This document shows positions 1 to 22,841 of a stretch of DNA of 64,000 nucleotides, piece after piece. The stretch covers positions 14,838-78,837 of the forward strand of contig CAZWVF010000003.1 of NCBI GenBank assembly GCA_964637695.1, read 5' to 3'. A program made the translations under genes and the position numbers. Below the pieces are notes generated by a model that was not told the DNA's origin, made no database searches, and was given only the letters and a program-made list of their open reading frames with translations. The stretch's first letter is position 1, and each line of letters begins with the position of its first letter. The stretch is from an uncultured Gemmatimonadota bacterium. Lineage in GTDB: Bacteria; Blakebacterota; Blakebacteria; Blakebacterales; Blakebacteraceae.

Positions 1-710
1 GCCAGCTTCTCCAGAGATGTGTCAGACCTGGGGCCCTCATCCCGATCCACGATGACGGGATCGCCCTTTCGCTGAGGTATCACCACCGGCACGATCTCGT
101 CATTGAATCGGCCGGTGTTCCAGGCGGTTATCGCTCTCCGGTGGCTTTCGAGAGCGAACCGGTCCTGATCCTCCCTCTCGATACCATACGATTCAGCCAC
201 ATTCTCCGCGGTTGCTCCCATACTTACGGGTGGATGCTGTGCGGCAAGCTTGGGATTGGTAAAGTGCCATCCTATGGTGGAATCACAGATCTCCTGGTTT
301 CGATCGAACGCAGTTTCGGCTTTGGAGATAACGAGGGGCGAGCGGCTCATACTTTCAACGCCGCCGGCAATGAAGACGTCTCCCATTCCTGTTTTGACGG
401 CCATCGCCGCCTGGTTGATGGCCTCCAGGCCCGATCCACAAAGACGATTCAGGGTGCATCCTGCGATCTCCACAGGGAAGCCTGCCAGAAGCGCTGCCAT
501 CCTGGCCACGTTGCGATTATCCTCACCGGCCTGGTTCGATGCGCCGAACAGGACGTCCTCCAGCAGCCCGGGATCGATCCCGCTCCGATCGGCCGCCTCC
601 CGCATGACCAGGGCTGCCATGTCATCCGGGCGGATATCTTTCAGAGCACCGCCATATCTGCCGACAGGAGTTCTTACTGCTTCGACGATAACCGCCTCGC
701 GAGATTCCAT
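1..710 (-). CDS. acetyl-CoA acetyltransferase / 3-ketoacyl-CoA thiolase. Only the N-terminal ~236 aa are present because the gene runs off the window edge.
   Basis: Reverse-complement translation from ATG (complement of 708-710) gives MESREAVIVEAVRTPVGRYGGALKD...NRLCGSGLEAINQAAMAVKTGMGDVFIAGGVESMS, typical of a thiolase N-terminus with the active-site Cys region. GAGGG RBS 9 nt upstream. Missing from the ORF track because no stop lies inside the window. The plus-strand ORFs 141..830 and 250..714 are its antisense shadows. Confidence 0.8.
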   Translation of the reverse strand, partial: MESREAVIVEAVRTPVGRYGGALKDIRPDDMAALVMREAADRSGIDPGLLEDVLFGASNQAGEDNRNVARMAALLAGFPVEIAGCTLNRLCGSGLEAINQAAMAVKTGMGDVFIAGGVESMSRSPLVISKAETAFDRNQEICDSTIGWHFTNPKLAAQHPPVSMGATAENVAESYGIEREDQDRFALESHRRAITAWNTGRFNDEIVPVVIPQRKGDPVIVDRDEGPRSDTSLEKL

Positions 711-861
711 ATGATCATAACCCTCATATCGGGTGTGCGACTCCGATTACTGCTTAACGGGGATGCTACATGTTGCAGACCATTTCGGCAATCTGTCCTG
801 CGCTCTTTCCATCTGATTCGGACAGGTTGACGCTCCGGCCGCAACCGCACTACGATATTCT

Positions 862-876
862 TTCGAACGTTCGTTC
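862..876. promoter_or_regulatory. candidate operator TTCGAACGTTCGTTC (contains the 10-bp perfect palindrome CGAACGTTCG) in the thiolase/tetR divergent promoter
   Basis: Perfect palindrome 864-873, 29 bp upstream of the tetR ATG. An identical 15-mer recurs at 22010-22024. Confidence 0.5.
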
Positions 877-897
877 TGCAGCGTTCCGATCGAATCG

Positions 898-1575
898 ATG
901 AACCGGTTAACCCCGACTGCAGTGACAGATACGAAGATGGCCGATAACGAGACAGAAGCCAATTCCATATCAGGAGAACGATCAGCCGCCAAACTGGAGA
1001 AACTGCTGACTGTTGCGGCCGAACTGATGGCCGTGCAGGGTTACGACCAGACCTCTGTGCGCGACGTAGCGCGGGAAACGGGCTTCAGCCTGGCCGGGAT
1101 GTACTACTACTTCCAGAGCAAAGAGGATCTGCTGTACCAGATCCAGTACCGCACCTTTGACTCTCTGCTTCAGGAGCAGGAGGGCATCTCCAGGGGTGAG
1201 GGGAGTGCCGAGGAGAGGCTTCGTCTCTTCGTTCAGAATCATCTCTCATTCTACACCACGCATTTCAACGAGATGAAAGTCTGCACTTTCGAACTTCATT
1301 CCTTGAAGGATGAGCGATACACAACCATCGAGTCGCTCCGCCGGAAGAACTTCAAGATCGCCATGGAAATCGTAAGAGAGATCGTCGAGGGATCCGGCCG
1401 GCCGGATGACGGAGGAGAGGTTGTCCGTCATTACACGCTTTTCATTTTCGGAATGCTCAATTGGATTTTCATGTGGTTCGATCCGGAGCGCGATGCGCCT
1501 CTCGAAAAACTGAGTGACGAACTGGTACAACTGGCGCTGCACGGACTGCGGGACGGCAGTTCACGTGGTGCCTGA
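898..1575 (+). CDS. TetR/AcrR family transcriptional regulator
   Basis: N-terminal HTH signature LLTVAAELMAVQGYDQTSVRDVARETGFSLAGMYYYFQSKEDLL. Divergent from the thiolase gene. A palindromic operator candidate lies 29 bp upstream. Alternative start at M14 (position 937). Confidence 0.85.
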   Translation: MNRLTPTAVTDTKMADNETEANSISGERSAAKLEKLLTVAAELMAVQGYDQTSVRDVARETGFSLAGMYYYFQSKEDLLYQIQYRTFDSLLQEQEGISRGEGSAEERLRLFVQNHLSFYTTHFNEMKVCTFELHSLKDERYTTIESLRRKNFKIAMEIVREIVEGSGRPDDGGEVVRHYTLFIFGMLNWIFMWFDPERDAPLEKLSDELVQLALHGLRDGSSRGA

Positions 1576-1617
1576 CAGCCTGCCGACAGAGGACAGGACA
1601 GAAAAGGAAATCGGGAA

Positions 1618-2580
1618 ATGACACTCTTTCCTTCCAGACCAGCAAGTGAGTTCGATTTTCAGGAGATCCTGTACGAAAAGAAGGACCTCGTAGCCCGAAT
1701 AACGATAAACCGGCCGAAGGCTTACAATGCCTATACGACCCATACCCTCCAGGAACTGATCACGGCATTTACCGATGCTGCGAACGACGACGGAGTGGGG
1801 GTCATAATTTTCACAGGTGCGGGTGACAGGGCCTTTTGCACCGGGGGGGACGTCAAGGAGTACGCCTCGGTTTACACGCAGCGTCCGAGGGACTACTGGA
1901 AGTATATGGGTCTCTTCTCCGGTTATATCGAAAGCATCCTGAAAACCGGTAAGGTGACGATAGCGCGCCTGAACGGCATGGCGGTCGGAGGCGGGAATGA
2001 ATCGCAGCTTGCCTGTGATCTGGCCGTGATGGCCGATGACACTTATATCGCTCAGGTGGGAACGAGTGTGGGCAGTGTGGCCTGCGGTGGTGCCACCCAG
2101 TGGCTCTCCATAGTCGTCGGTGACCGTCGCGCCCGTGAGATCCTCTTTCTGAATCACAAGATACCAGCCGGGCAGGCGCTCGAATGGGGCCTGGTCAACC
2201 GGGTGGTCCCCAGAGACCGGTTGGATGAGGCGGTGGATGAGATGGCCCAGGAGCTGCTGGACAAATTCCCCGAATGCACACGCTACACAAAGGCGCAGCT
2301 CAATTACTGGAAAGAGTCAGTCTGGTACTCGACTGTCGGCCATGCACGTGACTGGCTCAGCACTCACTTCACATCAATGGAACCGTACGAGGGAATGACC
2401 GCCTTCGTGGAGAAGCGCCAGGCCCGTTATCGCGAACTTCGGGAGAAAGCAGCTTCAGGCGGCAGCAGTGAATTCCTGTGGGGACCCTACTCCCATACGT
2501 GCCAGGTATGCGGAGCCGCTGGTATTCCGGCAGAATTTGAATACTGCGGAGTGTGCGGGGCCAAACTGGAGAAAGAATAA
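1618..2580 (+). CDS. MenB/BadI-like crotonase-superfamily enzyme with a C-terminal CxxC-x11-CxxC zinc ribbon. Candidate 2-ketocyclohexanecarboxyl-CoA hydrolase (BadI) or dihydroxynaphthoyl-CoA synthase-type hydrolase.
   Basis: ILYEKKDLVARITINRPKAYNAYT...IFTGAGDRAFCTGGDVKEY...RLNGMAVGGGNESQLACDL closely follows the MenB/BadI pattern (MenB: ILYEK..GIAKITINRP..NAFRP...ILTGAGDKAFCSGGDQ). GGAAA RBS-like stretch before ATG 1618. C-terminal CQVCGAAGIPAEFEYCGVCGAKLEKE. Confidence 0.8.
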   Translation: MTLFPSRPASEFDFQEILYEKKDLVARITINRPKAYNAYTTHTLQELITAFTDAANDDGVGVIIFTGAGDRAFCTGGDVKEYASVYTQRPRDYWKYMGLFSGYIESILKTGKVTIARLNGMAVGGGNESQLACDLAVMADDTYIAQVGTSVGSVACGGATQWLSIVVGDRRAREILFLNHKIPAGQALEWGLVNRVVPRDRLDEAVDEMAQELLDKFPECTRYTKAQLNYWKESVWYSTVGHARDWLSTHFTSMEPYEGMTAFVEKRQARYRELREKAASGGSSEFLWGPYSHTCQVCGAAGIPAEFEYCGVCGAKLEKE

Positions 2581-2591
2581 AGGAGAGATCG

Positions 2592-3341
2592 ATGGAGCTG
2601 GGACTCGACGGCAGGGTTGCCCTTGTAACCGGAGGCGCAAGGGGGATAGGCGCAGCCATTTCACTGGAGCTGGCCCGCCAGGGATGCAGCATTGCGATTG
2701 TCGATATCAGCCCTGCAGATGCGATGAAAGACCTGATTGCCATGATCGATGAGCAGGGAGGCAGAACCCTGGTTCTGCAGTCGGACGTGTCGAAATTCGC
2801 TGAAGCCGAAAAATGTATTGAGTCGGTTCGGACAGATCTGGGAACTCTCGATATCGTGGTCTGCAATGCAGGCGTCAACAGGGATGGCGTTATCTGGAAG
2901 ATGACGGAGGAATTGTGGGATGAGGTTCTGGATATCAACCTGAAGGGCTGCTTCAATTTCTGCAGAGCTGCAGCCAGGGTTTTCCGCGAGCAGGGTCACG
3001 GCAAAATCGTGAATATCGCCTCGATCAACGGCCTGAGGGGCAAATTCGGGCAGAGCAACTATGCTGCTTCGAAGGGGGGCATAATCGCGCTGACCAAATC
3101 TGTCGCCGTTGAACTCGGTCGCTTCGACGTCAATGTCAATGCCGTGGCTCCAGGTATGGTCATGACCGATATGGCCGTTGACATGCCGCAGGAGTTTCTC
3201 GATCAGGCCATCGAAGAGACGGTTCTGGGTCGAATTGCCGAACCCGGGGAGATCGCACACCTGGTGGCATTTCTCTGTTCCGATTACGCCCGCCACATAA
3301 CAGGCGAAGTGATCAAGATAGACGGCGGACAGTATATCTGA
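2592..3341 (+). CDS. short-chain dehydrogenase/reductase (FabG/BadH-like 3-oxoacyl / 2-hydroxyacyl-CoA dehydrogenase)
   Basis: LDGRVALVTGGARGIGAAISLELARQGCSIAIVD Rossmann motif, NAG motif (VCNAGV) and catalytic YAASK. AAGGAGAG RBS at 2581-2588 before ATG 2592. The track ORF begins upstream at 2553, which is probably spurious. Confidence 0.85.
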   Translation: MELGLDGRVALVTGGARGIGAAISLELARQGCSIAIVDISPADAMKDLIAMIDEQGGRTLVLQSDVSKFAEAEKCIESVRTDLGTLDIVVCNAGVNRDGVIWKMTEELWDEVLDINLKGCFNFCRAAARVFREQGHGKIVNIASINGLRGKFGQSNYAASKGGIIALTKSVAVELGRFDVNVNAVAPGMVMTDMAVDMPQEFLDQAIEETVLGRIAEPGEIAHLVAFLCSDYARHITGEVIKIDGGQYI

Positions 3342-3377
3342 CGATATAGAGACCGCAAGAGGAGGAGAGATCGTGGA

Positions 3378-4151
3378 ATGAGTGAAAACAGTGAACTGAC
3401 CAGGTATGAGGTCCGCGAGGATGTAGCGTATATTACCCTCGACTCCCCTCCTTTGAATATCATGACCATTGCGATGATGGATGAGATCAGTGAACTGCTG
3501 GAGAAAGCCGAATCTGACCCATCGGTTAAGGCGGTAGCCTTCACTGCCGAAGGAAAGGCCTTCAGCGGCGGCGCAGACATCGGAGAGCACCGTCCCGAGC
3601 AGGTCGAAGGGATGATCGGTTCGTTCGGACGACTCTTTAATAAGCTGGGTACTCTGGAACTTCCGGTTGTCATGGCTGTGAACGGGGCAGCGCTGGGTGG
3701 TGGATTCGAACTGGTGATGATGGCGGATATCCTGCTGGCAACCCCTGAAGCCACATTTGGACAGCCCGAGATTCGACTCGGATTCTTCGCTCCCGCAGCA
3801 ATAGTCCGTCTGCCCGACCTGGTCGGGACTGCGCGGGCTATTGAGATCACCTGTTCGGGGAAAACGTATGCCGCTGCCGAAATGCGTGAGATGGGTGTGG
3901 TTACACAGATCGTTTCAGAGGAAAACCTGGAGGACACTCTGGAAACCGTACTGAAGGACTTTCGAAGGTCGAGTCCCCTGGTGATGAGAATGAATGTACG
4001 TACCTTGAAAAGTCTGAAAGGGATTGGATTTGTTGAAGCGCTGGCGGAAGCGGAAAAAGTATTCCTCGAGAAACTGATGGCGACTGAGGAGCCTATTGAA
4101 GGGATAGCCTCCTTTTATGAGAAGAGACGTCCGGAGTGGAAGAACAGGTGA
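3378..4151 (+). CDS. enoyl-CoA hydratase/isomerase (crotonase family; BadK/Dch-like)
   Basis: YITLDSPPLNIMTIAMMDEISELL...AVAFTAEGKAFSGGADI...AVNGAALGGGFELVMMAD are crotonase-fold motifs. GAGGAGAG RBS before ATG. Confidence 0.85.
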   Translation: MSENSELTRYEVREDVAYITLDSPPLNIMTIAMMDEISELLEKAESDPSVKAVAFTAEGKAFSGGADIGEHRPEQVEGMIGSFGRLFNKLGTLELPVVMAVNGAALGGGFELVMMADILLATPEATFGQPEIRLGFFAPAAIVRLPDLVGTARAIEITCSGKTYAAAEMREMGVVTQIVSEENLEDTLETVLKDFRRSSPLVMRMNVRTLKSLKGIGFVEALAEAEKVFLEKLMATEEPIEGIASFYEKRRPEWKNR

Positions 4152-4193
4152 TCATGTGATGGAACTTATTGCAGGGGATCCGGGAGTGATGCG

Positions 4194-6443
4194 ATGCACA
4201 CGGTTGTAATAGGCGCCGGGGCTCTGGGAGGCCTGATAGGTGCTCAACTCCACATGGCTGAGAAGAAAGTCACGATGGTCGAGATCAATCAGGCCAGAGC
4301 ACGCCTGATCAACGAGACGGGTATTTACGTCTCAGAGGGGCAGAAGGGGGAACGGTGCGTTCCGGTTACGGTAGCTACTTCCTGCGAAGGCCTCGAACCT
4401 GCCGATCTGATATTCGTGGCTGTGAAGAGCTATCAGACCGATAAAGCAACTCGCAGCGTGCTGCCCCTGATGGGTCCCGACAGCATGGTTCTTTCAATGC
4501 AGAACGGCATTGGGAACACAGATGTGATGGCAGACATCATCGGACCCGAACGCGTGCTCTGCGGAATCACGTATCACAGTATCCAGCATACGGGGCCTAA
4601 CAGACTTCGCTTCAGACCGGGTATAAAGCCGATCCAGATTGCACCGTTTGACGGGAAAATCACACCAGGGATAGAGTCGATCGGTGAACTCTTCACAAGT
4701 GCAGGCCTGGCAACAGAGATTCTTGAGAATATCGATAACGTCATATGGCAGAAACTCCTGCATAACGCCGTCGTTAATCCCGTCTCCGCTCTTTCAGGTC
4801 TGACGTGCAGGGAACTGCTCGATGACGAAGACCTTCAGGACTTCATGCGCGACATGTGCATGGAAATCATCGAGGTTATGAAGGCAAAGGGGATCCCGAT
4901 TATCGACGACGAGGATCCATACAGGCCGGTAACGAATTCACAGAGAGCTCTGGGCAAGAACCGTCCTTCGATGTGGCAGGACCTCGCCCGTGGATTTCGG
5001 ACGGAAGTCGATGCACTCAACGGTGCAATCGTCGTTGAGGCTGAGCGCCTCGGCCTGCCGGCGCCACTCAACCGGACCATCGTCCGTCTGATCCATTCAA
5101 GTGAACGTCAGGGATTCATGCGCCGGGAAGAGATCGCAGAGACACTGAAAAGCGCTGCCGGAGTCATGCCCATACCTGTCTCTCGTCCTACAGTACCGGA
5201 GAAACAGGAAGACATCCCGTCCGGCAGGATCCCCCTGCAGACCGCGCCGGCATTGAAGGAACTGATACGTGAATATTATCAGGAGATCCAGAAGGGCAGT
5301 GAAAATCCCGACCAGCTGTTGGCGTGGGCATCCGGAATGGCTCCTGTTGAGATCATCCGGGCGATGGGGATACTGCCCTACTTCCCGGAAAATCATGCAG
5401 CACTTATCGGATCGAGCCGGCAATCGGGCAAATACATCGCCAGAGCTCTGGCAGAGGGATTTTCGCAATTCGCAAGTACTGCGATGACCTGTGACATAGG
5501 AGCCGTGCTGGTCGGCGACAGTCCTCTGGTGAGTGTTTACGATATCAAGGGTCCTCCCAGAGCCGATGTCATGGTATTCAGCACCAACTTCGGACAGAGG
5601 CTCATCAGGTGGTTCGACTTCTACGGCAGCCACTTCGGTGTTCCCGTTCTGGGGCTTCATCCTCCGGTCGCCCTGAGTGACGTGGGCAAGATCGAAGTCG
5701 ACGCTGCAGCCGGACAGATGATGCGTCTGACTGCAGAGCTGGAAGAGATTGCCGGCAGGAAGCTCGATCCTGACCGTCTTGCAGAAGTCGTAGACCTGTC
5801 GGCACAGTCATCCCGGTTGTGGAGCGAGATACTCGATCTGGCCCGCAACGTGCCGTCTCCGTTCACGACTTTCGATCTCTTCGTGCATATGGCCCCGATG
5901 GTGATGATGAGAGGGACTCAGGAGGCGATAGAGTACTACACGATCCTGAAGGCTGAAATTGAAGAACGGGTCTCCAGCATGCAGGCCGCGGTTCCCGGAG
6001 AGAGATACCGATTTTACTGGGAGGGTCCGCCGGTGTGGGGTGCCCTGCGCACTCTGGCCAAAATGTTCTTCGACAACCGGATTGCCCTGATCGTTTCAAC
6101 ATACTGCAACATGTGGGCGCTCGAGGGACTCGATCCTGGCAACCCGTTCGAGAGCATGGCCCGTACCTATACGGGGATCTTTCCGAACCGCTCCGATGAT
6201 TTCAAGGCAACTTACCTGGTATCGCAGTTTGAGGAACACGGTATAGACTGCGTCGTATATCATGACGGTCGCACCGCTTCGGAGCATAGTAACGTCCGCT
6301 ACGGGCTCGAATTGAAGTTGAGAAGGAAGACCGGCCTGCCTTCCATAGTGATAGAGGCCGATTCGCATGACCTCCGTCTCTTCTCTGCACCTGAAGTCGA
6401 GCGTCAGCTGACCGATTTTCTGGAACAACAGGAGGAACTTTGA
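4194..6443 (+). CDS. fusion protein. N-terminal 2-dehydropantoate 2-reductase (KPR/ApbA)-like NAD(P)-binding domain (~310 aa), then a C-terminal benzoyl-CoA reductase / 2-hydroxyacyl-CoA dehydratase-family catalytic subunit (~430 aa).
   Basis: N-terminus MHTVVIGAGALGGLIGAQL (Rossmann) ... DALNGAIVVEAERLGLPAPLNRTIVRLI (KPR C-terminal helix region). From ~aa 335: LKELIREYYQEIQK...MAPVEIIRAMGILPYFPENHAALIGSSRQ..., which is paralogous to the ORF at 8217..9479 and has the HgdB/BcrB-family look. Continuous ORF with no stop or frameshift. An internal GGAG-2nt-ATG at ~aa 320 has poor RBS spacing. Confidence 0.7.
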   Translation: MHTVVIGAGALGGLIGAQLHMAEKKVTMVEINQARARLINETGIYVSEGQKGERCVPVTVATSCEGLEPADLIFVAVKSYQTDKATRSVLPLMGPDSMVLSMQNGIGNTDVMADIIGPERVLCGITYHSIQHTGPNRLRFRPGIKPIQIAPFDGKITPGIESIGELFTSAGLATEILENIDNVIWQKLLHNAVVNPVSALSGLTCRELLDDEDLQDFMRDMCMEIIEVMKAKGIPIIDDEDPYRPVTNSQRALGKNRPSMWQDLARGFRTEVDALNGAIVVEAERLGLPAPLNRTIVRLIHSSERQGFMRREEIAETLKSAAGVMPIPVSRPTVPEKQEDIPSGRIPLQTAPALKELIREYYQEIQKGSENPDQLLAWASGMAPVEIIRAMGILPYFPENHAALIGSSRQSGKYIARALAEGFSQFASTAMTCDIGAVLVGDSPLVSVYDIKGPPRADVMVFSTNFGQRLIRWFDFYGSHFGVPVLGLHPPVALSDVGKIEVDAAAGQMMRLTAELEEIAGRKLDPDRLAEVVDLSAQSSRLWSEILDLARNVPSPFTTFDLFVHMAPMVMMRGTQEAIEYYTILKAEIEERVSSMQAAVPGERYRFYWEGPPVWGALRTLAKMFFDNRIALIVSTYCNMWALEGLDPGNPFESMARTYTGIFPNRSDDFKATYLVSQFEEHGIDCVVYHDGRTASEHSNVRYGLELKLRRKTGLPSIVIEADSHDLRLFSAPEVERQLTDFLEQQEEL

Positions 6444-6497
6444 ATCGTTCTATTGATAAGACAGGAAACGGGCAGGTTCCGACAAACGGGTGTTGCC

Positions 6498-7283
6498 ATG
6501 TCTGAAGAGAAGAGGATTGTAGCAGCGATTGACGTGGGTACGGAATGTATCAAGGCGGTCGTCATGGATGAAACTACCGCCATCCTGGGTCGTTCCATTA
6601 TTCCTGCCAGCGGTTATTTCCGGCATCGTGTCAAGGAAGCTCTCGACGGCGCACTCGATGACGCCCGATTGGAGCATTCTGATATCGATTCAATTTCGTC
6701 AACCGGTTTCGGCGCCAGCTGTGTCGAGGAGGCGGCAGCTCAACTGGGCGAGACTGCATGTCACGCACGGGGTGCGTTCTTCCACCATAAAGGTGCCATG
6801 TCTGTCATAGACATCGGCGGCCGCGATCCAAAGGTCCTTTACGTCAGCGAAGAGGGTCAGGTCCTCGAGGCCCACATGGTGAGACGGTGTGCGGTCGGTA
6901 TAGGCACCTTTCTCATGTTCACCGCCCGCCACCTCGACGTTCATCCGACACGCCTTCAGGAGCTGGCGGCCGAGGCCGGAGAACCGGCGGACATCGGAAG
7001 TTACTGTTCGGTATTCGCAGGATCGGAGGTCCTCGAACAGCTCCGGGAAGGTACCAGTCGTGAGAATATCGCCTCGGGAGCAATGCGCTCGGTGGCCGAG
7101 AGGATCTTCGAGATCGGCGGCCTGCAGGAACCGGTACGCGTTACAGGCGGAGTCGCTGAATATTTTCCAGGGGTGCTCAAATCTCTCTCTGAAATGACAG
7201 GGATCGAGATCGAGGCTGTTCCGGAACCGATCATGGCGGGAGCAATCGGAGCTGCCCTGAAGAGTCTGAACAGCAGTTCTTGA
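6498..7283 (+). CDS. BcrAD/HgdC-family ATPase subunit (CoA-substrate-specific enzyme activase fold) with both [4Fe-4S]-bridging Cys motifs
   Basis: MSEEKRIVAAIDVGTECIKAVVMDE (ASKHA phosphate-1 motif), VRRCAVGIGTFLM and IGSYCSVFAGSEVL (conserved Cys pair), IMAGAIGAAL at the C-terminus. The track ORF starts 45 nt earlier (6453). ATG 6498 is the chosen start. Confidence 0.8.
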   Translation: MSEEKRIVAAIDVGTECIKAVVMDETTAILGRSIIPASGYFRHRVKEALDGALDDARLEHSDIDSISSTGFGASCVEEAAAQLGETACHARGAFFHHKGAMSVIDIGGRDPKVLYVSEEGQVLEAHMVRRCAVGIGTFLMFTARHLDVHPTRLQELAAEAGEPADIGSYCSVFAGSEVLEQLREGTSRENIASGAMRSVAERIFEIGGLQEPVRVTGGVAEYFPGVLKSLSEMTGIEIEAVPEPIMAGAIGAALKSLNSSS

Positions 7284-7293
7284 ATTTCCATCG

Positions 7294-8094
7294 TTATATA
7301 TCCATGATGATGTCTGCTTGTCCGGTACTCTCTTTCGCAAACAGTGCTGCTCCAAAAGCTCCGCTGAGTTGTGGTTCAGGCGGTATCAGCACCTCTCCAC
7401 GTATATACTTCTTCATCACTTCGAGCATGATGTCATTGTAGGCCACGACCCCTCCCGTCATCACAACAGGTCCCTCCAGGGTATCCATTTCGATCACCCT
7501 TCTGGCGACAGACTCATATGCACTCTTTACCATGTCTTCCAGATTCTCACCCTCTCTTATCCTCGTGAGTATCTCTGAGGAAGCGAAAACGGTGCAGAAA
7601 CTGCTCAAAGCCACATCGTTTTCAGACTTCCGGGCCAGTTCGTTCATCTGGTCCATCTCGATCTGCAGTTTGCCGGCGATCTCTTCCAGAAATGTGCCTG
7701 TCCCCGCTGCACACTTGCGGTTCATCTTGAAACCGGTTCGTTTCCCTTCGCCGTCCAGCTTTATCACTTTGGTATCCTGGCCTCCGATATCTATTACGGT
7801 AATCTGTCGAGGGAAGTGATGAAATGCTCCTTTTGAGTGGCAGGCGATCTCTGTTTTCACATTATCGGCAAGCGTGACATTCTTCCGGCCGAAACCTGTA
7901 GCAGTGATGTGCTGAATCGATTCCCGCTCAGTGGAGCTTGAAAAGAGCAGAGCCTCAAATGTCGAATGGATGGACGATTGCAGATCGGCACCGGAACGCC
8001 CGATGGAGTGTCCGATTATCTCAGCTTTCTCATCTATCAGAACAGCTTTGATGTAAGATGTGCCGACGTCTATGCCTGCAGAGAGTCCAGCCAC
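7294..8094 (-). CDS. second BcrAD/HgdC-family ATPase subunit. It is convergent with the previous gene and stops 10 bp apart from it.
   Basis: MAGLSAGIDVGTSYIKAVLIDE, KMNRKCAAGTGTFLE, LSSFCTVFASSEIL, LSGAFGAALFA are canonical activase/BcrD motifs, including the Cys pair. Confidence 0.8.
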   Translation of the reverse strand: MAGLSAGIDVGTSYIKAVLIDEKAEIIGHSIGRSGADLQSSIHSTFEALLFSSSTERESIQHITATGFGRKNVTLADNVKTEIACHSKGAFHHFPRQITVIDIGGQDTKVIKLDGEGKRTGFKMNRKCAAGTGTFLEEIAGKLQIEMDQMNELARKSENDVALSSFCTVFASSEILTRIREGENLEDMVKSAYESVARRVIEMDTLEGPVVMTGGVVAYNDIMLEVMKKYIRGEVLIPPEPQLSGAFGAALFAKESTGQADIIMDI

Positions 8095-8216
8095 GGTTAT
8101 CTCCGATCTGCTGTCTCGGTTTCGACTTTACAGCAGCAGGTTTAGGATACCACCTCCGCTCCCCTTTCTGTTACTGTCTAATTATCATCCCTCTGTTTTT
8201 CAGTGTGGTCACTCGT

Positions 8217-9479
8217 ATGGAGCAGATCGATATGGCAGAAGAGAAGAAACAGCTCAGAAAGAAAATTGAAGCGACGACTGAGATGGCCCGGATAATGGGC
8301 GAATACTTTTATGAACTGGATAAGGCAGCGAAGTCACCCGAAAAGAAAGTGGCATGGTGCACCAGTGTCGGTCCCGCGGAGCTGCTGCGTGCAATGGGAT
8401 TCTACGTTCACTTTCCCGAGAACCACGGCGCCATACTGGGAAGCAGCCGGATGGCCTCCGACCTGATCCCCTATGCAAACGCTATCGGTTACTCGCCCGA
8501 TATCTGTTCATACCTGACCTCCGATGTCGGGGCATATCTGCAGGGAGTCACTCCTCTCTCCAGGGTATATGAGGGAATTGAAAGCATACCTGAACCAGAT
8601 GTCCTGGTGTTCAATACCAACCAGTGCAGGGCCGTTCAGGACTGGCTTGCCTGGTTTGGCAGGGAGTTCGACGCTCCGGTTCTGGGAATACATACACACA
8701 GAGGGATATCGGATGTTACCAACCTCCACATAAATTCGATAACCGCACAACTGGAGGCACTGGTCAATCCACTGGAGGAAATCATGGGAAGTCCTCTGGA
8801 TCCCGCCGAGCTGGAAAGGGTGGTGGGACTCTCCCGTGAATGTTCTGAATTATGGAAAAAGGTTCTGGATACGGCAGCAGCAAGGCCGTCTCCATTCACT
8901 TTCTTTGACGGTACCATTCACATGGGTCCGGCGGTCGTTCTGCGTGGAACCCAGCCGGCAATAGACTACTACAAACTGTTGCTGGCCGAACTTGAATCGA
9001 GAATATCCAGTGGTGAAGGGGCGGTAGAGGGAGAAGAGTTCAGACTTTACTGGGAGGGGATGCCGATATGGGGCAGGCTGCGCGCTCACTCCGAACTCTT
9101 TGCCTCCAACCGTGCGTGCGTGCTTGCCTCCACATACTGCAACAGCTGGATCTTCACCCGGTTCGATGGAGCTGATCCCTTCAAAAGCATGGCAAGGGCG
9201 TATACTGAACTATTCATCGTCCGTTCCGACGAGATAAAGGAGCAGTATATAAAGGAGATGTTCGACACCTTCCAGATCGATGGCATCATCTACCACGATG
9301 CCAGGACCTGTCTCGACAACACCAACAGCCGGTTCGGCATGCCTCAGAGACTGGAGGAGGAAACGGGTATACCGAGCCTGACCATAAATGGTGACCTGAA
9401 CGACCTCCGGTGTCTCAGTGATGAACAGACCAATACCAGTATCGAAGCGTTCATAGAGCAGCTCGAGGAGATGCGATAG
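8217..9479 (+). CDS. benzoyl-CoA reductase / 2-hydroxyacyl-CoA dehydratase-family catalytic subunit (paralogue of the C-terminal domain of 4194..6443)
   Basis: MEQIDMAEEKKQLRKKIEATTEMARIMGEYFYELDKAAKSPEKKVAWCTSVGPAELLRAMGFYVHFPENHGAILGSSRM. It shares the FPENH block and overall collinearity with the fused subunit. The track ORF extends to 8058 with a low-complexity Cys/Leu-rich N-terminus that overlaps the divergent gene and is judged spurious. Start at ATG 8217 or 8232. Confidence 0.75.
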   Translation: MEQIDMAEEKKQLRKKIEATTEMARIMGEYFYELDKAAKSPEKKVAWCTSVGPAELLRAMGFYVHFPENHGAILGSSRMASDLIPYANAIGYSPDICSYLTSDVGAYLQGVTPLSRVYEGIESIPEPDVLVFNTNQCRAVQDWLAWFGREFDAPVLGIHTHRGISDVTNLHINSITAQLEALVNPLEEIMGSPLDPAELERVVGLSRECSELWKKVLDTAAARPSPFTFFDGTIHMGPAVVLRGTQPAIDYYKLLLAELESRISSGEGAVEGEEFRLYWEGMPIWGRLRAHSELFASNRACVLASTYCNSWIFTRFDGADPFKSMARAYTELFIVRSDEIKEQYIKEMFDTFQIDGIIYHDARTCLDNTNSRFGMPQRLEEETGIPSLTINGDLNDLRCLSDEQTNTSIEAFIEQLEEMR

Positions 9480-9480
9480 C

Positions 9481-11559
9481 ATGCTCGATGCACTCTTCTT
9501 TCCGAAATCGGTTGCCGTAATCGGCGCATCGACAAAAGATCTGTCAATAGGCAACAGGATCATCAGGAACCTGCACGACTTCGGTTACAAAGGCTCCATT
9601 TATGCCATCAATCCCAGGGGAGAAGAGGTCAGAGGGCTGGAACCATTCGCGTCCATACTCGATGTTCCAGACGATGTTGAGCTGGTGCACATCGTTATCC
9701 CCTCGAAATATGTCCCCCAGGCTGTTGATGACTGCGGGAAGAAGGGTGTCAGGGTAGCGATCATCAACACTGCCGGTTTCAAAGAGGTGGGAGGGGAAGG
9801 TGTTGAGCTGGAGGATCAGGTTGTCGCCAAAGCCGGTGAGTACGGTATCAGGATTTTCGGACCGAACTGCCAGGGGATTATCAACACCGATCCCGATATA
9901 AGGGCTTACTGCAACTTCACATTCACACGACCTTCAGAAGGTTCCATCTCCATCGTTGCCCAGAGTGGTGGTGTAGGGGAGGTGCTGAACCAGCGATTCT
10001 CAGAGCTGGATGTTGGAGTCAGGATGTACGCCTCCAACGGCAATGCCTGCGACATTTCCATCCCCGAAGTAATCCGCTACTGGGGATCGGATGAGAAGAC
10101 CAGAGTGATCGTGGTTTACATAGAGAGTCTTGCCGATCCGCTCGAGTTCATGGAGGCAGCCAGGGAGGTAGCTGCCGGCAAGCCTGTCCTCGGCATGAAA
10201 GCCGGCCGGACGGCAGAAGGTGCCAGGGCTGTCTCCTCCCACACCGGAGGTCTGGCTCAGCAGGAGATCGCGATAGAACTGATATTCAATAAGACCGGTA
10301 TCGTGACCTTCCGGGACCAGGAGGAACTGTGTCAGGCGGCGGTGGCCTTTGCTTCTCAACCTGTTCCCGGTGGTAACAGGGTAGGGCTGATTACCAATAC
10401 CGGTGGACCGGCCATTATCGCGACAGACGAGCTGGTAGATGCCGGCCTGGTTATCCCTCCACTCTCTGATAAGGCCGAAAACATTCTTAAGGAAAAGCTG
10501 CATGCTGCTGCCTCCATTTCCAATCCGATAGACGTACTGGCAACTGCAGGAGCGGAACACTTCAAAGCGGCCGCTGATGTATTGATGGATGAAGAGGAGA
10601 TAGACAGCATATACATTAATTTCGTCACGCCTTTCTTCGTCGATAACGAAAGTGTCGCGCGGGTACTGGTAGAGGTTAACCAGGCCGGTTTCAAGCCCGT
10701 TGTCTGCAATCTCATGACCGACAGGGTTGAGTGGGCCGATACGCTCAGGATCCTGAAAGAGGGAGGGATCCCCTGTTACAGTTTCGCCGAAACTGCCGCA
10801 AAGGCTCTGGCTGCCATGACACGTTATGGCGGGCTGCGCTCCAGGAATGTGGGCGAATCCCCTGCCTTTGATGATATAGATCGTGTGCAGGCGGAGAAAG
10901 TCATTGAAAACGCCACGACCGGTGGAACAGGAATGTTGACTACCACGCAGGTACACAGACTGCTGGAGGCATACGGGATACCTGCCGCGGCCTGGAAGGT
11001 GGCAACATCCGCATCGGAAGCTGTCGCCGCAGCAGGGGAAATAGGTTTTCCGGTAGTTGTGAAAGTCGATTCCACGTCGATTGTTCACAAATCCGACGAA
11101 GGTGGTGTAGCAGTTGATCTGAGCGATGCAGAATCGGTTGAATCTGTTGTGAACGGGATGAACGAGAGATTTGGAGCCGACGATCTCAGGTTCCTGGTTC
11201 AGAAATATGTGCCGGGTGGGAGGGAAGTGATAATAGGGGCGACGGCTGAAGAAGGTCTGGGACACCTTATCATGATCGGACTGGGTGGCATCCTTGTTGA
11301 AGTTCTCAAGGATGTGTCGTTCGCGATAACCCCTGTGACGGAGTATGAAGCCCGGGAGCTGATGAGTTCACTTAAATCATATCCTGTACTGGAAGGGATT
11401 CGGGGTGAGGAGGGGGTCAACAGGGATGCACTGATCGGAATCGTGCTGAGGATCTCACAGATGGTTACCGATCATCCCTCCATTCGGGAGATTGACCTGA
11501 ATCCCGTTATCGCCTGTGAGAAGTATGTGTCTGTTGTCGATGCCAGGATCGTAATCTGA
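9481..11559 (+). CDS. acyl-CoA synthetase (NDP/ADP-forming), fused alpha+beta domains (Acd type)
   Basis: N-terminal CoA-binding VAVIGAS...IYAINP, succinyl-CoA-synthetase-like flavodoxin domain, then C-terminal ATP-grasp domain (GFPVVVKVDSTSIVHKSDEGGVAVDL). The start overlaps the stop of the upstream gene (TAGcATG), so translational coupling is likely. Confidence 0.85.
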   Translation: MLDALFFPKSVAVIGASTKDLSIGNRIIRNLHDFGYKGSIYAINPRGEEVRGLEPFASILDVPDDVELVHIVIPSKYVPQAVDDCGKKGVRVAIINTAGFKEVGGEGVELEDQVVAKAGEYGIRIFGPNCQGIINTDPDIRAYCNFTFTRPSEGSISIVAQSGGVGEVLNQRFSELDVGVRMYASNGNACDISIPEVIRYWGSDEKTRVIVVYIESLADPLEFMEAAREVAAGKPVLGMKAGRTAEGARAVSSHTGGLAQQEIAIELIFNKTGIVTFRDQEELCQAAVAFASQPVPGGNRVGLITNTGGPAIIATDELVDAGLVIPPLSDKAENILKEKLHAAASISNPIDVLATAGAEHFKAAADVLMDEEEIDSIYINFVTPFFVDNESVARVLVEVNQAGFKPVVCNLMTDRVEWADTLRILKEGGIPCYSFAETAAKALAAMTRYGGLRSRNVGESPAFDDIDRVQAEKVIENATTGGTGMLTTTQVHRLLEAYGIPAAAWKVATSASEAVAAAGEIGFPVVVKVDSTSIVHKSDEGGVAVDLSDAESVESVVNGMNERFGADDLRFLVQKYVPGGREVIIGATAEEGLGHLIMIGLGGILVEVLKDVSFAITPVTEYEARELMSSLKSYPVLEGIRGEEGVNRDALIGIVLRISQMVTDHPSIREIDLNPVIACEKYVSVVDARIVI

Positions 11560-11600
11560 AGTGTCCTGAGTCAGGGCACAAGGAGGGAGGGCAATACCAG

Positions 11601-13154
11601 GTGGCTGAATGGCTGAACCTTGGAGAGATATTAAGGGTAAATGCGGGCAAGTTCCGGGGGAAGATATGCCTGAAGGATGCAGAGCGAAGCCTTACTTTCG
11701 AAGAGGTCAACTCCAGGGTCAACCGTCTGGCTCAGGGGTTCCTGGATATCGGGCTGAAAAAGGGAGATCGTGTGGCGGTCTTCCTCGATAACTCGGTCGA
11801 GATCTGTGAAGTCTATTTTGCAGCAGCCAAAACCGGTGTCGTGGTTGCACCGATCAATTTCCGTCTCGATCCGAAGACAGTCTGTTATATTACCGACAAT
11901 TCCGATGCCAGGGCGCTGGTTGTGCACGATGAGTGGACGCCGATGTTCGATGAGATGAAGGGTGATCTGCCGCGTGTCGAACATTTCCTCAGCGTTGGTG
12001 AAGAGAGTTCCGGATGGACTGATTATGAAAGTTTTCTGAGCAGTTACCCCGATAAGGAACCACATGCAGCGGTCCTGCCCTCCGATCCATGGTTGCAGCC
12101 GTACACCTCAGGTACTACAGGGGTACCGAAGGGTATTGTCAGGTCCCACGAATCGTATATCGCCTTCTATCTGATCAACGCCGGTGATTTCGGTTTCACG
12201 AGCCGGGACATCTGCCTGAACGTCATGCCCCTCTGTCATGTGAACTCCACCTTCTTCACATTCACATTCACATATATAGGAGGCGCGGCGTATATCCACC
12301 CGGCCAGATCTTTCCAGCCACTGGAGATACTCGAAGTTATCGAGAGAGAGAAGATCACCTTCATATCCCTGATCCCGACCCACTATAACATCATCCTGAA
12401 CGCTCCAAGGGAGGAGGCCGAGAAGTACGACGTTTCCTCGATACGAAAACTTCTCTGTTCCTCAGCCCCTGTATTCGCCGAATGTAAAAAAGCCGTGATG
12501 GAGTTCTTCCCGGACGCCGAGCTCTATGAGGCATATGGTTCAACAGAGGCCGGCATAGTGACCACCCTCATGCCGTGGGATCAGATGAGTCATCTTGGAT
12601 CAATCGGAAAGGAATCGGCCGGTACAGACACAATCAAACTGCTCGACGAGGATGGCAATGAGGTCCCCGTGGGAGAGGTCGGGGAGATCTACTCCCGCAG
12701 CCCGATGATGTTCACCGAGTACTACAAGATGCCTGAGATGACCAGGATCTCATTCAGGGGTGATTATTTCTCAGCGGGTGATATGGGCAGAAAAGATACC
12801 GATGGTTACTACAGCATCGTCGACCGGAAGGACAACATGATCATCACCGGCGGTGAGCATGTTTACCCATCGGAAGTGGAGAGTGTCATATGCTCCCACC
12901 CGGGAGTTTTCAGTGCGGCGGTGATCGGACTGCCCCACGAGAAATGGGGTGAGGCAGTTACTGCCATCGTGGTTCCCAGGGATGATCATTCTCTGGAAGA
13001 GGAAGAGATTATCACTCATTGTGCCGGTGAACTGGCGTTATTCAAAAAGCCGAAGGCGGTAATATTCATTTCACAGGATGAGATGCCCACAACGGGCAGC
13101 GGCAAGATACTGCACCGGGTACTTCGAGAACGCTTCAGTGGCGGGCAGACCTGA
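11601..13154 (+). CDS. AMP-forming acyl-CoA ligase (aromatic/alicyclic acid-CoA ligase, BadA/AliA-like)
   Basis: AMP-binding signature YTSGTTGVPKGIV, YGSTEAG, GEIYSRSPMMFTEYYK, the hinge D...ITGGEHVYPSEVE, and the C-terminal GKILHRVL lysine motif. Confidence 0.85.
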   Translation: MAEWLNLGEILRVNAGKFRGKICLKDAERSLTFEEVNSRVNRLAQGFLDIGLKKGDRVAVFLDNSVEICEVYFAAAKTGVVVAPINFRLDPKTVCYITDNSDARALVVHDEWTPMFDEMKGDLPRVEHFLSVGEESSGWTDYESFLSSYPDKEPHAAVLPSDPWLQPYTSGTTGVPKGIVRSHESYIAFYLINAGDFGFTSRDICLNVMPLCHVNSTFFTFTFTYIGGAAYIHPARSFQPLEILEVIEREKITFISLIPTHYNIILNAPREEAEKYDVSSIRKLLCSSAPVFAECKKAVMEFFPDAELYEAYGSTEAGIVTTLMPWDQMSHLGSIGKESAGTDTIKLLDEDGNEVPVGEVGEIYSRSPMMFTEYYKMPEMTRISFRGDYFSAGDMGRKDTDGYYSIVDRKDNMIITGGEHVYPSEVESVICSHPGVFSAAVIGLPHEKWGEAVTAIVVPRDDHSLEEEEIITHCAGELALFKKPKAVIFISQDEMPTTGSGKILHRVLRERFSGGQT

Positions 13155-13185
13155 CAATCACTGATAACATAACGGGGAAAACATC

Positions 13186-14253
13186 ATGGAAGATGCGATG
13201 ACCATCAGAGGATGGATGATGACAGGTGCCGGTCAGCCTTTCGAAGAAGGCTCGATTCCGGTCGAATCGATACAGCCGGGTGAAGCTCTCATCGAAGTTG
13301 CCGGATGCGGTGTCTGTCATACAGATATCTCCTTCCTGCATTTTGGTGTCAAGACGCGCGCCGGGCTTCCCCTGGTCCTGGGGCATGAAATCAGCGGTAC
13401 GGTTGTGGAGGTCGGCGATGGGGTGGACGCTTCACTGGCCGGCAAACCGGTCCTTGTGCCGGCTGTCCTGCCATGCGGTGAATGCGAATTATGCAGGTCG
13501 GGTGACCTCAGAATCTGTCGTGCACAGATAATGCCCGGCAATGACCGGCATGGGGGCTTCGCATCTCATGTTGTTGTGCCGGCTCGTTATCTATGTCCGG
13601 TCGATGATACGGTACTGGCAGATCACAAACTGTGGGAGCTGGCAATCGTATCAGATGCCGTAACCACACCGTTTCAGGCTGTCAGACTTTCCAACCTCAA
13701 GGAGGACGATCTGGCGGTGGTTATCGGAACAGGTGGGATCGGGATCCATGCTGTGCAGATAGCAGCGGCGGTGGGAGCGAAAGTAGTGGCTCTCGATATT
13801 GATGATGTCAAACTGGATGTGGCTTCCAGGCATGGTGCCGATGCCGTTATCAATGTATCCGGTCTGGATATCAAAGAGATCAGGGGAAACCTCAAAGAAG
13901 AAGTATCACGCATCGGTGCACCGAAATTGAAATGGAGGATATTCGAGACATCCGGAGTGGGAGCGGGGCAGGAGCTGGCCTACTCCCTGCTCAATTTCGG
14001 AGCTCATCTGGCAGTTGTCGGTTTCACGATGGACAAGCTGGAGTTGAGGTTGAGCAATCTGATGGCATTCGATGCAACCGCCATGGGGAACTGGGGCAGC
14101 GATCCGACGCTCTATGCCGAAGTGCTCGACTGGATAGCCGACGGTAGAATCCAGGTTAAGCCATTTATTGAAAAACATCCTCTAAGTTCGATTAACGAGG
14201 TGTTTGATTCGGTGCATGCAGGAGAACTTCAGGGCAGGGCAGTTCTCGTTTAA
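13186..14253 (+). CDS. Zn-dependent alcohol dehydrogenase (MDR family; possibly a 6-hydroxycyclohexene-carbonyl-CoA dehydrogenase Had-like or secondary alcohol dehydrogenase)
   Basis: GCGVCHTDISF and GHEISGTVVEVG are catalytic Zn ligand motifs. The structural-Zn Cys cluster is CGECELCRSGDLRIC. Rossmann motif VIGTGGIGIHAVQIAAAVGAKV. Confidence 0.85.
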   Translation: MEDAMTIRGWMMTGAGQPFEEGSIPVESIQPGEALIEVAGCGVCHTDISFLHFGVKTRAGLPLVLGHEISGTVVEVGDGVDASLAGKPVLVPAVLPCGECELCRSGDLRICRAQIMPGNDRHGGFASHVVVPARYLCPVDDTVLADHKLWELAIVSDAVTTPFQAVRLSNLKEDDLAVVIGTGGIGIHAVQIAAAVGAKVVALDIDDVKLDVASRHGADAVINVSGLDIKEIRGNLKEEVSRIGAPKLKWRIFETSGVGAGQELAYSLLNFGAHLAVVGFTMDKLELRLSNLMAFDATAMGNWGSDPTLYAEVLDWIADGRIQVKPFIEKHPLSSINEVFDSVHAGELQGRAVLV

Positions 14254-14269
14254 TCAGAGGAGTTGTAGA

Positions 14270-14845
14270 ATGTCACTCACCGAATCGACAATGCTGCCAA
14301 TCGGCACTGTCGCTCCTGATTTCATTCTCCCTGACACCGACGGATCGAAGGTATCGCTGGAAGATCTGTCCGGCAATGTCGGGCTGGCAGTGATCTTCAT
14401 GTGCAACCACTGCCCCTACGTGAAACACATACAGTTCAAGCTGGCAGATCTGGCCTGGGAGTATCAGGAACCGGGGATTCAGTTCGTCGGAATCAACTCG
14501 AACGATATCGAGGCGTATCCCGAAGACAGTCCCGAGCTCATGAGAGATGATAAAGCACGGGTCGGCTATCCCTTCCCATATCTGTTCGATGAGACCCAGG
14601 ATATTGCCAAAGCCTACCGGGCAGCCTGCACACCCGACATCTACCTGTTCGACGGTGACAATAAACTTGTATACCGTGGCCAGTTCGACAGCAGCCGCCC
14701 GAATTCGGGTGACCCGACCGGCGAGGATCTCCAGGCAGCGATGGACGCTCTTCTGGACAACCTGCCGGTGCCGGAAGATCAGGTCCCGAGCATCGGATGC
14801 AACATCAAGTGGAAGCCGGGAAACAGTCCTGACTACTTCGAGTAG
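14270..14845 (+). CDS. thioredoxin-fold thiol-disulfide oxidoreductase (AhpC/TSA / thioredoxin-like family)
   Basis: AGAGGA RBS at 14256-14261 then ATG 14270. MSLTESTMLPIGTVAPDFILPDTDGSKVSLEDLSGNVGLAVIFMCNHCPYV contains the CxxC motif. The track ORF starts at 14204 and overlaps the ADH 3' end. Confidence 0.7.
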   Translation: MSLTESTMLPIGTVAPDFILPDTDGSKVSLEDLSGNVGLAVIFMCNHCPYVKHIQFKLADLAWEYQEPGIQFVGINSNDIEAYPEDSPELMRDDKARVGYPFPYLFDETQDIAKAYRAACTPDIYLFDGDNKLVYRGQFDSSRPNSGDPTGEDLQAAMDALLDNLPVPEDQVPSIGCNIKWKPGNSPDYFE

Positions 14846-14956
14846 TACTCGCTCAATGGGTACCGATCACAATAGATCTTCTTTCTGGTGCCCGCTCACC
14901 GTGCAACTATGGTCGATCCTGTAGAAGCGCTGAACTACGAGTAGGCTCGGGACACT

Positions 14957-19455: not shown

Positions 19456-19479
19456 GAATGTAAACTCCCTTGTTCTTTA

Positions 19480-20790: not shown

Positions 20791-20832
20791 CTCATGCTCC
20801 TTTAACCCGATCTTTAAGAGAATCCGGGTGAA

Positions 20833-21960: not shown

Positions 21961-22007
21961 ATTTACTTCCTCCCGCAATTCGTGTGCAGCGCTTGCTACA
22001 ATATACT

Positions 22008-22836: not shown

Positions 22837-22841
22837 AAGCA

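Follow-up and report, generated by a model that had tools for sequence, protein, structure and literature searches.

A putative alpha-only 2-hydroxyacyl-CoA dehydratase-type system with a dehydrogenase-fused, cluster-less subunit in a Gemmatimonadota benzoyl-CoA pathway cluster

Introduction

Textbooks illustrate ATP-energized single-electron chemistry with the benzoyl-CoA reductase/2-hydroxyacyl-CoA dehydratase (BCR/HAD) family, and its few characterized members all combine an alpha subunit with a cluster-bearing beta subunit. Here we analyze a 64,000-nucleotide stretch of DNA, called the window below, from an uncultured Gemmatimonadota bacterium (GenBank assembly GCA_964637695.1, contig CAZWVF010000003.1, positions 14,838 to 78,837), which carries a set of four genes of this family, A to D, at positions 4194-9479. 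Gene A fuses a ketopantoate reductase (KPR)-like dehydrogenase to a domain of the HGD-D type, the domain of the catalytic subunits; B and C encode two ATPases, and D encodes a stand-alone HGD-D protein. We propose that this set may be a dehydratase-type system in which only alpha-type subunits are present.

The closest described dehydratase systems are HadBC with HadI (Clostridioides difficile; PDB 3o3m and 4eht), HgdAB with HgdC, and FldBC with FldI. In the had, fld, and hgd operons, the genes for these oxygen-sensitive dehydratases are accompanied by those for an activator, a 2-hydroxyacid dehydrogenase, and a CoA-activating enzyme. The double-cubane proteins (DCCP/DCCP-R) make do with one kind of catalytic subunit and one kind of ATPase. 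Among the class I BCRs (BzdNOPQ, BcrCBAD, and MbdONQP; PDB 8s02, 9g87, and 9gai), BzdO holds the catalytic [4Fe-4S] cluster via Cys95/128/380, and the beta-type subunit, BzdN, holds via six Cys an [8Fe-9S] cluster in which BCRs store electrons (PMC11971306). A route from phenylpyruvate through cinnamoyl-CoA to benzoyl-CoA has been put forward only as a hypothesis (PMC13416013). Our full-text literature searches found no description of a KPR-HGD fusion or of the pathway considered below; PMC1924859 treats an unrelated Geobacter ATPase.

Results

A four-gene set outside the characterized groups

Gene A (4194-6443, plus strand) encodes 749 amino acids with the Pfam domains ApbA, ApbA_C, and HGD-D. 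Genes B (6453-7283, plus strand, with a probable start at 6498) and C (7294-8094, minus strand) encode ATPases of the BcrAD_BadFG family, and gene D (8232-9479, plus strand) encodes an HGD-D protein of 415 to 420 amino acids. An ADP-forming acyl-CoA synthetase (ACD; 9481-11559, plus strand) and an AMP-forming acyl-CoA ligase (11601-13154, plus strand) follow D. All four genes of the set are intact open reading frames (ORFs), and D lies inside an intact ORF at 8058-9479 whose 5' over-extension overlaps the start of C; a 100%-identical database protein (P0121) has 415 amino acids, placing the true start of D at about 8217 or 8232. A first-pass annotation of the window had put the whole set on the plus strand, which is wrong for C, a gene divergent from D. 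Its other structural observations hold: one catalytic subunit is fused to a KPR-like domain, D is a paralogue of the HGD part of A (41% identity), with which it shares the FPENH block, and B and C are different ATPases (39% identity) that both have the cluster-bridging Cys pair. The pseudogenized duplicate that it had considered as a counter-explanation is contradicted by the intact ORFs.

Every score of the set against an equivalog model falls far below the cutoff. For the HadB model (NF052455; cutoff, 750), the scores are 204 bits for D and 180 bits for A; both proteins score 125 to 126 bits with BcrB (cutoff, 486.55) and 45 to 60 bits with BzdO (cutoff, 448.6), and D reaches 54.5 bits with the double-cubane model NF040772 (cutoff, 350). 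B and C score 99 to 132 bits against the BCR ATPase equivalogs, whose cutoffs are 313 to 578. In addition, A and D form a clade of their own with 100% bootstrap support, inside the clade of alpha-type subunits (100/100). The set thus stands outside the characterized orthologous groups, as the first-pass annotation had expected. Judged by domain content, reading frames, and occurrence, the fusion system is a real, intact, and widespread architectural variant of the BCR/HAD family that is as yet uncharacterized.

Compared with the Had, Hgd, and Fld systems, the set has in common the HadB (alpha) fold of D and of the C terminus of A, the three-Cys catalytic [4Fe-4S] site of D, HadI/HgdC-like ATPases with two bridging Cys, and the operon logic of 2-hydroxyacid dehydrogenase, CoA activation, activator, and dehydratase, although the enzyme families differ. 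There is no beta subunit (HadC) here; the partner is a second alpha-type protein without cluster Cys and fused to a dehydrogenase, which is of the KPR family rather than of the LdhA/HgdH type. A CoA ligase and ACD stand in place of the CoA-transferase, the ATPases are two paralogues, and the hosts belong to respiratory soil and sediment phyla and to the archaea, whereas those of the described systems are clostridial fermenters. With the class I BCRs the set shares the superfamily, a three-Cys alpha-type subunit, two nonidentical ATPases of which one is more degenerate, and colocation with the benzoyl-CoA pathway; however, it has no six-Cys [8Fe-9S] subunit of the BzdN/BcrC type, it scores 60 to 126 bits against cutoffs of 449 to 487, and it is fused or linked to a KPR and has no dedicated ferredoxin. 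The likeness to DCCP lies in the ancestral D-plus-C module, which appears to use one type of catalytic subunit and one type of ATPase, but D has three cluster Cys rather than six.

Gene A joins a dehydrogenase to a cluster-less HGD domain

Protein A consists of a KPR/ApbA domain (residues 1 to 316), a disordered linker (317 to 339), and an alpha-type HGD-D domain (approximately 350 to 749). Its N terminus scores 254.7 bits with TIGR00745, over the subfamily cutoff of 141.35, and contains PF02558 and PF08546; against the PanE equivalog models it remains below all cutoffs (e.g., 191.6 bits versus 252 for NF005091). All 75 sequences compared have the catalytic residues Lys187, Asn191, Ser259, and Glu271. 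The AlphaFold2 model of A (pLDDT, 88.5, with the linker at <50; pTM, 0.58) has two confident domains, the first of which superposes on ketopantoate reductases and D-mandelate dehydrogenases with TM scores of 0.86 to 0.91. The KPR/ApbA family includes both the ketopantoate reductases (PDB 3hwr and 5hws) and the D-mandelate dehydrogenases (3wfi, 5x20, and 8wl1), and A resembles them in fold, subfamily score, and catalytic residues but differs in its fusion to an HGD-D domain and its place in a catabolic aromatic cluster. Because the invariant Ser of its PSMWQD motif matches the carboxylate-binding Ser244 of the Escherichia coli KPR, the domain probably acts on a free 2-oxoacid. An acidic residue at the end of beta-2, Glu30, suggests NADH rather than NADPH as the cofactor.

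The C-terminal domain of the model superposes best on HadB (TM score, 0.93; root mean square deviation, 1.9 Å), with 0.80 to 0.84 for MbdO and BzdO. In an alignment of A, D, the BzdO of the window, and HadB, this domain has Ser, Gly, or Ala at the three columns that hold the cluster Cys in HadB, BzdO, and D. None of the 83 A orthologues has a Cys at these columns, and no Cys anywhere in the domain is invariant. The Glu of the FPENH block, which D also has, is nevertheless kept in 82 of the 83.

Gene D is an alpha-type subunit without a beta partner

Protein D has Cys at all three columns corresponding to Cys95/128/380 of BzdO, and the three are kept in 50 of 51 D orthologues. HadB is its best relative of solved structure (8.5e-50, 173 bits), followed by MbdO (2e-30, 109 bits) and BzdO (2.7e-14, 56 bits). 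Both A and D match alpha-type models only (HadB, BcrB, and BzdO), with no match to the beta-type models HadC (NF052456), BcrC, and BzdN; the set contains no other HGD-D gene, and neither a beta nor a double-cubane subunit was found in it. The first-pass description of the pair as HgdAB/BcrBC-like is therefore not borne out. We had also considered that D has no counterpart of the proton-donor His131 of BzdO as an argument for a dehydratase, and we dropped it, as the genuine reductase MbdO has Phe there.

The ATPases B and C keep both cluster-bridging Cys, in 77/77 B orthologues and in 48 to 49 of 49 C orthologues. The second phosphate motif is canonical in C (DIGGQDTK, and DIGGQDxK across orthologues) and degenerate in B (DIGGRDPK, and DIGG[R]D[P]x across orthologues), a milder form of the asymmetry between BzdQ and BzdP. 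C matches HadI at 4.9e-52 and HgdC at 2.8e-45, and both ATPases pass TIGR00241, "acyl-CoA dehydratase activase" (C, 227.7 bits; B, 165.7 bits; cutoff, 125.4).

A duplicated two-gene module

We built neighbor-joining (NJ) trees, with bootstrap support by split counting, in which the characterized references include HadB, BcrB, and MbdO. D as a whole is monophyletic (40/40) and comprises a "linked" subclade from loci with all four genes (40/40) and a "free" subclade (36/40) that holds the D of the window. The HGD domain of A is sister to all D (40/40). In parallel, B and C each form a monophyletic group (50/50 for both), and the two groups are sisters (45/50). As A-HGD is sister to all D and B is sister to all C, the pairs A-HGD plus B and D plus C stem, by tree topology, from an ancestral module of two genes that was duplicated. 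In the window, both C and D belong to the free clades; on this placement the window combines an A-B module with a free-type module of C, D, ACD, and ligase.

Distribution and gene order

Homologues of A are numerous: at least 120 are full length, at 59 to 92% identity and all of about 750 to 780 amino acids, and those that are named carry automatic labels only, mostly "2-dehydropantoate 2-reductase." Species-representative genomes contain 384 loci with the KPR-HGD fusion. Among the loci listed, the hosts are all metagenome-assembled genomes, from Gemmatimonadota, Acidobacteriota, Krumholzibacteriota, Eisenbacteria, Myxococcota/Anaeromyxobacteraceae, and others, and the fusion lies nearly always within clusters of the benzoyl-CoA pathway.

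Gene context was compared by tblastn synteny, with a GC3 filter for gene calling on high-GC loci. A and B are adjacent wherever B was detected, i.e., in 76 of the 83 loci with A (B was not seen in the other 7), and D and C are adjacent in 47/47 loci. In 37 loci A, B, D, and C are contiguous and co-oriented. L016 and the 92%-identical L083 also have the inverted C of the window; because this arrangement recurs, it is not an assembly artifact. Other arrangements separate the two modules. A close relative (L086) has 5 kb of unrelated genes between A-B and C-D, 11 loci have A-B without D-C within at least 6 kb, and in one group of loci A-B is followed directly by Had (6-hydroxycyclohex-1-ene-1-carbonyl-CoA dehydrogenase, of the benzoyl-CoA lower pathway), with a separate unit of D, C, ACD, and a Na+/solute symporter elsewhere. 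That symporter is of the SSF family (L020, 13809-15224, with equivalents in L012, L014, L015, L022, L023, and L053), which suggests uptake of an acid substrate.

In the 49 loci of at least 15 kb, Had is near A-B in 37, a 4-hydroxybenzoyl-CoA reductase (4-HBCR)-like Mo enzyme is present in 39, a true BcrCBAD or BzdNOPQ in 18, and FadB plus thiolase in 18. The AMP-ligase is conserved alongside both the D module and the four-gene loci. In Anaeromyxobacteraceae, a minimal unit is formed by thiolase-FadB divergent from A-B-D-C-ligase, with an IorA-like 2-oxoacid oxidoreductase (indolepyruvate:ferredoxin type; IOR below), a PaaK-like ligase, an ACT protein, and a Liv-type ABC transporter as neighbors.

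The wider D family and its operon

A search with D returned 7,888 matches at E ≤ 1e-20. The best 120 are all at least 70% identical to D and include Anaerolineae, Desulfobacteraceae, Petrotogales, and the archaeon "Ca. Proteinoplasmatales" SG8-5; on these matches the D family is large and highly conserved across bacteria and this archaeon. A metagenome scan added 572 relatives. The usual operon of the family comprises a free-standing KPR, one ATPase, D, ACD, and the AMP-ligase: among 30 well-flanked metagenome loci, the ATPase is present in 27, the free KPR in 23, ACD, located after D, in 22, the ligase in 16, and an A-type subunit in none. Further neighbors in these loci are IOR (7 loci), PaaK-like genes (6), Had (6), AOR (3), and BCR-beta (2). 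Beside four D modules of independent lineages, Had and Oah pass their equivalog cutoffs, and three D-module loci (L113, L135, and L147) have Had, Dch-like, and Oah genes without a class I BCR within 10 kb.

The archaeal locus (L085) reads VOR/POR, IOR alpha and beta, ligase, ATPase (leftward), D (rightward), ACD, AMP-ligase, a free KPR, and, farther away, AOR; it has one HGD-D gene and one ATPase and neither A nor B. Its D is P0197 (NCBI, "Ca. Proteinoplasmatales" archaeon SG8-5). Between 7294-13154 of the window and 9040-14894 of this locus, the gene order and the divergent ATPase are the same, and identity is 66% for C, 73% for D, 67% for ACD, and 61% for the AMP-ligase, which suggests that the whole module of C, D, ACD, and ligase was transferred between domains.

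Where A-B is present (the window, L086, and the loci with all four genes), the D module is without its usual free KPR, suggesting that A supplies this function. The low identity of A's KPR domain to the free KPRs that accompany D (only 24 to 30%) ruled out a derivation from them and points to a separate recruitment from this enzyme family; D-type enzymes are thus linked to KPRs of two unrelated lineages.

Other genes of the window and of related loci

Upstream of A, all on the plus strand, lie genes for a TetR regulator (898-1575), a MenB/BadI/Oah-like crotonase that we call ECH320 (1618-2580), a short-chain dehydrogenase/reductase (SDR; 2553-3341), and an enoyl-CoA hydratase of the two-Glu type, ECH257 (3378-4151); their synteny is conserved in related loci. 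Downstream of the ligase, a Zn-dependent alcohol dehydrogenase (13186-14253, plus strand) is identified as Had by TIGR03201 (449.7 bits versus a cutoff of 338.65). The flanks are thus as the first-pass annotation had described them, a MenB/BadI-like crotonase, SDR, and crotonase on one side and a ligase and alcohol dehydrogenase on the other, with the latter being a true Had. ECH320 is unusually conserved, at 72 to 83% identity across phyla compared with 55 to 65% for its neighbors. It occurs in 19 loci and true Oah in 9, and in no locus do both occur together; ECH320 may be an alternative ring-cleaving hydrolase. The Mo enzyme, where present, lies upstream of the TetR gene and is not in the window. 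Its gamma and alpha subunits are fused (L082, 2509-6212; L001, 1394-5175), the alpha subunit scores 909 to 936 bits against a cutoff of 994.55, and its FAD subunit has no 4-HBCR-beta signature, matches XdhB, and appears to be missing the Fe-S insertion.

On the minus strand, the window also carries BzdN (20833-21978; 486 bits, cutoff 454), BzdO (19480-20790; 692 bits, cutoff 449), BzdP (18655-19455), BzdQ (17783-18658; 441 bits, cutoff 380), and an adjoining ferredoxin (17511-17786). As BzdN, BzdO, and BzdQ pass the NCBIfam equivalog cutoffs, the set at 17783-21978 is by these scores an ordinary Bzd-type benzoyl-CoA reductase, in agreement with the first-pass annotation, which was also right that each of the two sets in the window has two HGD-D and two ATPase genes. 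Beside the ferredoxin, an 831-amino-acid BzdV-like Fe-S/flavin oxidoreductase (14957-17452, minus strand) fuses 2Fe-2S, 4Fe-4S, and GltD-like flavin domains and is probably for NAD(P)H-linked re-reduction of ferredoxin for the benzoyl-CoA reductase. Directly 3' of Had is a peroxiredoxin (AhpC/TSA; 14204-14845, plus strand), and Gemmatimonadota loci have a hemerythrin-domain protein 3' of Had (e.g., L039, 18033-18602); such proteins may protect oxygen-sensitive enzymes in facultative hosts. A HipA-like kinase toxin of 410 amino acids (22468-24074, plus strand), preceded by a 122-amino-acid ORF, separates the aromatic cluster from the rest of the window. From 22 to 64 kb, the window holds housekeeping or other genes without relation to the set, and ORFs of 229, 556, 482, and 405 amino acids (141-830, 52402-55510, and 62221-63438) have no Pfam match. 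A promoter/terminator scan of 700-15000 returned fewer matches than shuffled controls and was uninformative.

Discussion

A proposed dehydratase-type pathway

We favor, at what we judge to be about an even chance of being right, the reading that the set is an (R)-2-hydroxyacyl-CoA-dehydratase-type (ketyl-radical, redox-neutral) system of an uncharacterized "alpha-only" lineage, with a pseudo-subunit that arose by duplication, has no cluster, and is fused to a dehydrogenase. The first-pass annotation had named a new dehydratase of this family only as its fallback, and it is this fallback that the proximity of D to HadB and the operon linkage to KPR and CoA activation better support. A dehydratase-type function is favored because a KPR, CoA activation, one activator ATPase, and a three-Cys alpha subunit recur together. 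As no beta or double-cubane subunit is present, the electron store of the class I BCRs is missing, which fits the recycling of a single electron.

Each catalytic step of this pathway, the substrate, and the subunit pairing are inferred from what was observed, namely, the domains, the Cys pattern, the phylogeny, and the linkage of the genes. With NADH, the KPR domain of A would reduce a 2-oxoacid to the (R)-2-hydroxyacid, and the AMP-ligase and/or the ADP-forming synthetase would convert it to the CoA thioester. The thioester would bind at the three-Cys [4Fe-4S] cluster of D, into which a cluster-bridged ATPase (C, probably with B) would inject one low-potential electron upon ATP hydrolysis, giving a ketyl radical; the alpha-hydroxyl would then leave, the beta-proton would be removed, and the electron would be returned, yielding a 2-enoyl-CoA. 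The hydratase, dehydrogenase, and thiolase (or hydrolase) genes of the cluster could shorten this product. In such a scheme the HGD-like domain of A would be a noncatalytic partner of D that tethers the dehydrogenase to the dehydratase, and B/C, or C alone, would be the ATP-dependent activator.

The substrates are probably amino acid-derived 2-oxo and 2-hydroxy acids of the aromatic kind (arylpyruvates and aryllactates), because IOR/PaaK, Had, Oah, BCR, and the Hcr-like enzyme recur as neighbors in independent lineages. Phenylpyruvate and phenyllactate and their 4-hydroxy forms would give cinnamoyl- and 4-coumaroyl-CoA and, by beta-oxidation, (4-hydroxy)benzoyl-CoA, which the neighboring BzdNOPQ-Had pathway would then consume.

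Several points weigh against this proposal. The characterized dehydratases all have a cluster-bearing beta subunit, and there is none here; the two distinct ATPases, moreover, resemble the BCR arrangement. The NJ support values, 40 for a position of the A-plus-D clade nearer HadB and 52 for one nearer BcrB/MbdO, do not settle its placement between dehydratases and reductases. The hydratase, SDR, and thiolase could equally be lower-pathway enzymes (Dch, 3-hydroxypimelyl-CoA dehydrogenase, and thiolase), so that an aromatic side-chain route is not demanded by the context, and aliphatic 2-oxoacids derived from Leu or Glu are possible substrates. The pairing of A with D is an assumption, because A-B occurs without D-C in 11 loci and the archaeal and most metagenome D-C pairs are without A-B; the pairing of B with C is likewise assumed. 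Finally, the conservation of the FPENH Glu in a cluster-less A is left unexplained.

Alternative readings

The separations of A-B from C-D raise the question of whether there is one system at all. C and D, with ACD and the ligase, might be an alpha-only dehydratase that suffices by itself and came in as a module, and A and B might have another role, e.g., a KPR dehydrogenase with a pseudoenzyme domain that binds CoA esters, or, for B, an ATP-driven function that has nothing to do with D. The free-clade placement of the window's C and D, the identity of 66 to 73% to an archaeal module without A or B, the 5 kb of unrelated genes in L086, and the 11 loci with A-B alone are all as such independence would predict, but A, B, D, and C are contiguous and co-oriented in 37 loci, the missing free KPR where A-B is present suggests that A supplies it, and a cluster-less A would leave B without an obvious electron acceptor, and we consider two independent systems unlikely. 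Less likely still is the reading that the first-pass annotation had preferred, a reductase with stoichiometric ATP consumption whose substrate would be a substituted benzoyl-CoA or a cyclic acyl-CoA already reduced in part. On this view, D would serve as a minimal catalytic subunit that receives its electrons directly from a B/C heterodimer, and KPR would reduce the keto tautomer of the product. That annotation had argued from the two ATPases with bridging Cys, whose canonical/degenerate asymmetry is indeed like that of BzdQ/BzdP; the argument is weak because B and C come from module duplication, and most members of the D family have only one ATPase. The open tree position relative to BcrB/MbdO, the location of the set between Dch-like and Had genes, and the three loci with Had, Dch-like, and Oah genes and no class I BCR within 10 kb would suit a reductase. 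Yet there is no beta-type [8Fe-9S] subunit, the partner A is without any cluster, D is nearer HadB by sequence and fold, and a bona fide BCR is already present in the window and in 18/49 related loci. Furthermore, the conserved KPR active site, including the PSMWQD Ser, suggests a free 2-oxoacid, the linkage to KPR would go unexplained, and the archaeal hosts, with IOR, VOR, and AOR, look like peptide fermenters.

The location of the genes inside operons of the benzoyl-CoA lower pathway and the linkage of ACD to D could also be read in the reverse, hydrating direction, since the dehydratase reactions are reversible: D would hydrate glutaconyl-CoA to (R)-2-hydroxyglutaryl-CoA, ACD would release 2-hydroxyglutarate with a gain of ATP, and KPR would oxidize it to 2-oxoglutarate. 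However, NAD+-dependent oxidation of 2-hydroxyacids is strongly unfavorable, KPR-family enzymes act as reductases, and the presence in the D-C-ACD module of an AMP-forming ligase and a Na+/solute symporter suggests that an acid is taken up from outside and activated. Glutaryl-CoA dehydrogenase genes are found at the edge of four loci only (L023, L030, L032, and L033; one checked by Pfam), and neither the archaeal context nor that of IOR has a connection with glutaryl-CoA. We set this 2-hydroxyglutarate scheme aside on thermodynamics and context as highly improbable.

Implications for the BCR/HAD family

Going beyond the favored dehydratase reading, we put forward as a tentative idea, more doubtful than that reading itself, that D-type enzymes form a third, "alpha-only" branch of the BCR/HAD family that is widespread among bacteria and archaea of anoxic soils and sediments, opening an unrecognized route from Phe/Tyr through arylpyruvate, aryllactyl-CoA, and cinnamoyl-/coumaroyl-CoA to benzoyl-CoA. 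In the lineage of the window, a homodimer would have become an asymmetric heterodimer in which one protomer is a cluster-less pseudo-subunit that tethers the dehydrogenase, with the activator likewise becoming a heterodimer. A lineage without a beta subunit, and a derived form with a cluster-free fused pseudo-subunit, would show which parts ketyl-radical catalysis needs. Automatic labels such as "2-dehydropantoate 2-reductase" and "BcrC/BadD/HgdB" would then be corrected. If the substrates are indeed aromatic 2-hydroxyacyl-CoAs, the set would represent a new and apparently common means of anaerobic degradation of Phe, Tyr, and aryl-lactates via benzoyl-CoA in soil and sediment bacteria, including Gemmatimonadota, Acidobacteriota, Myxococcota, and others.

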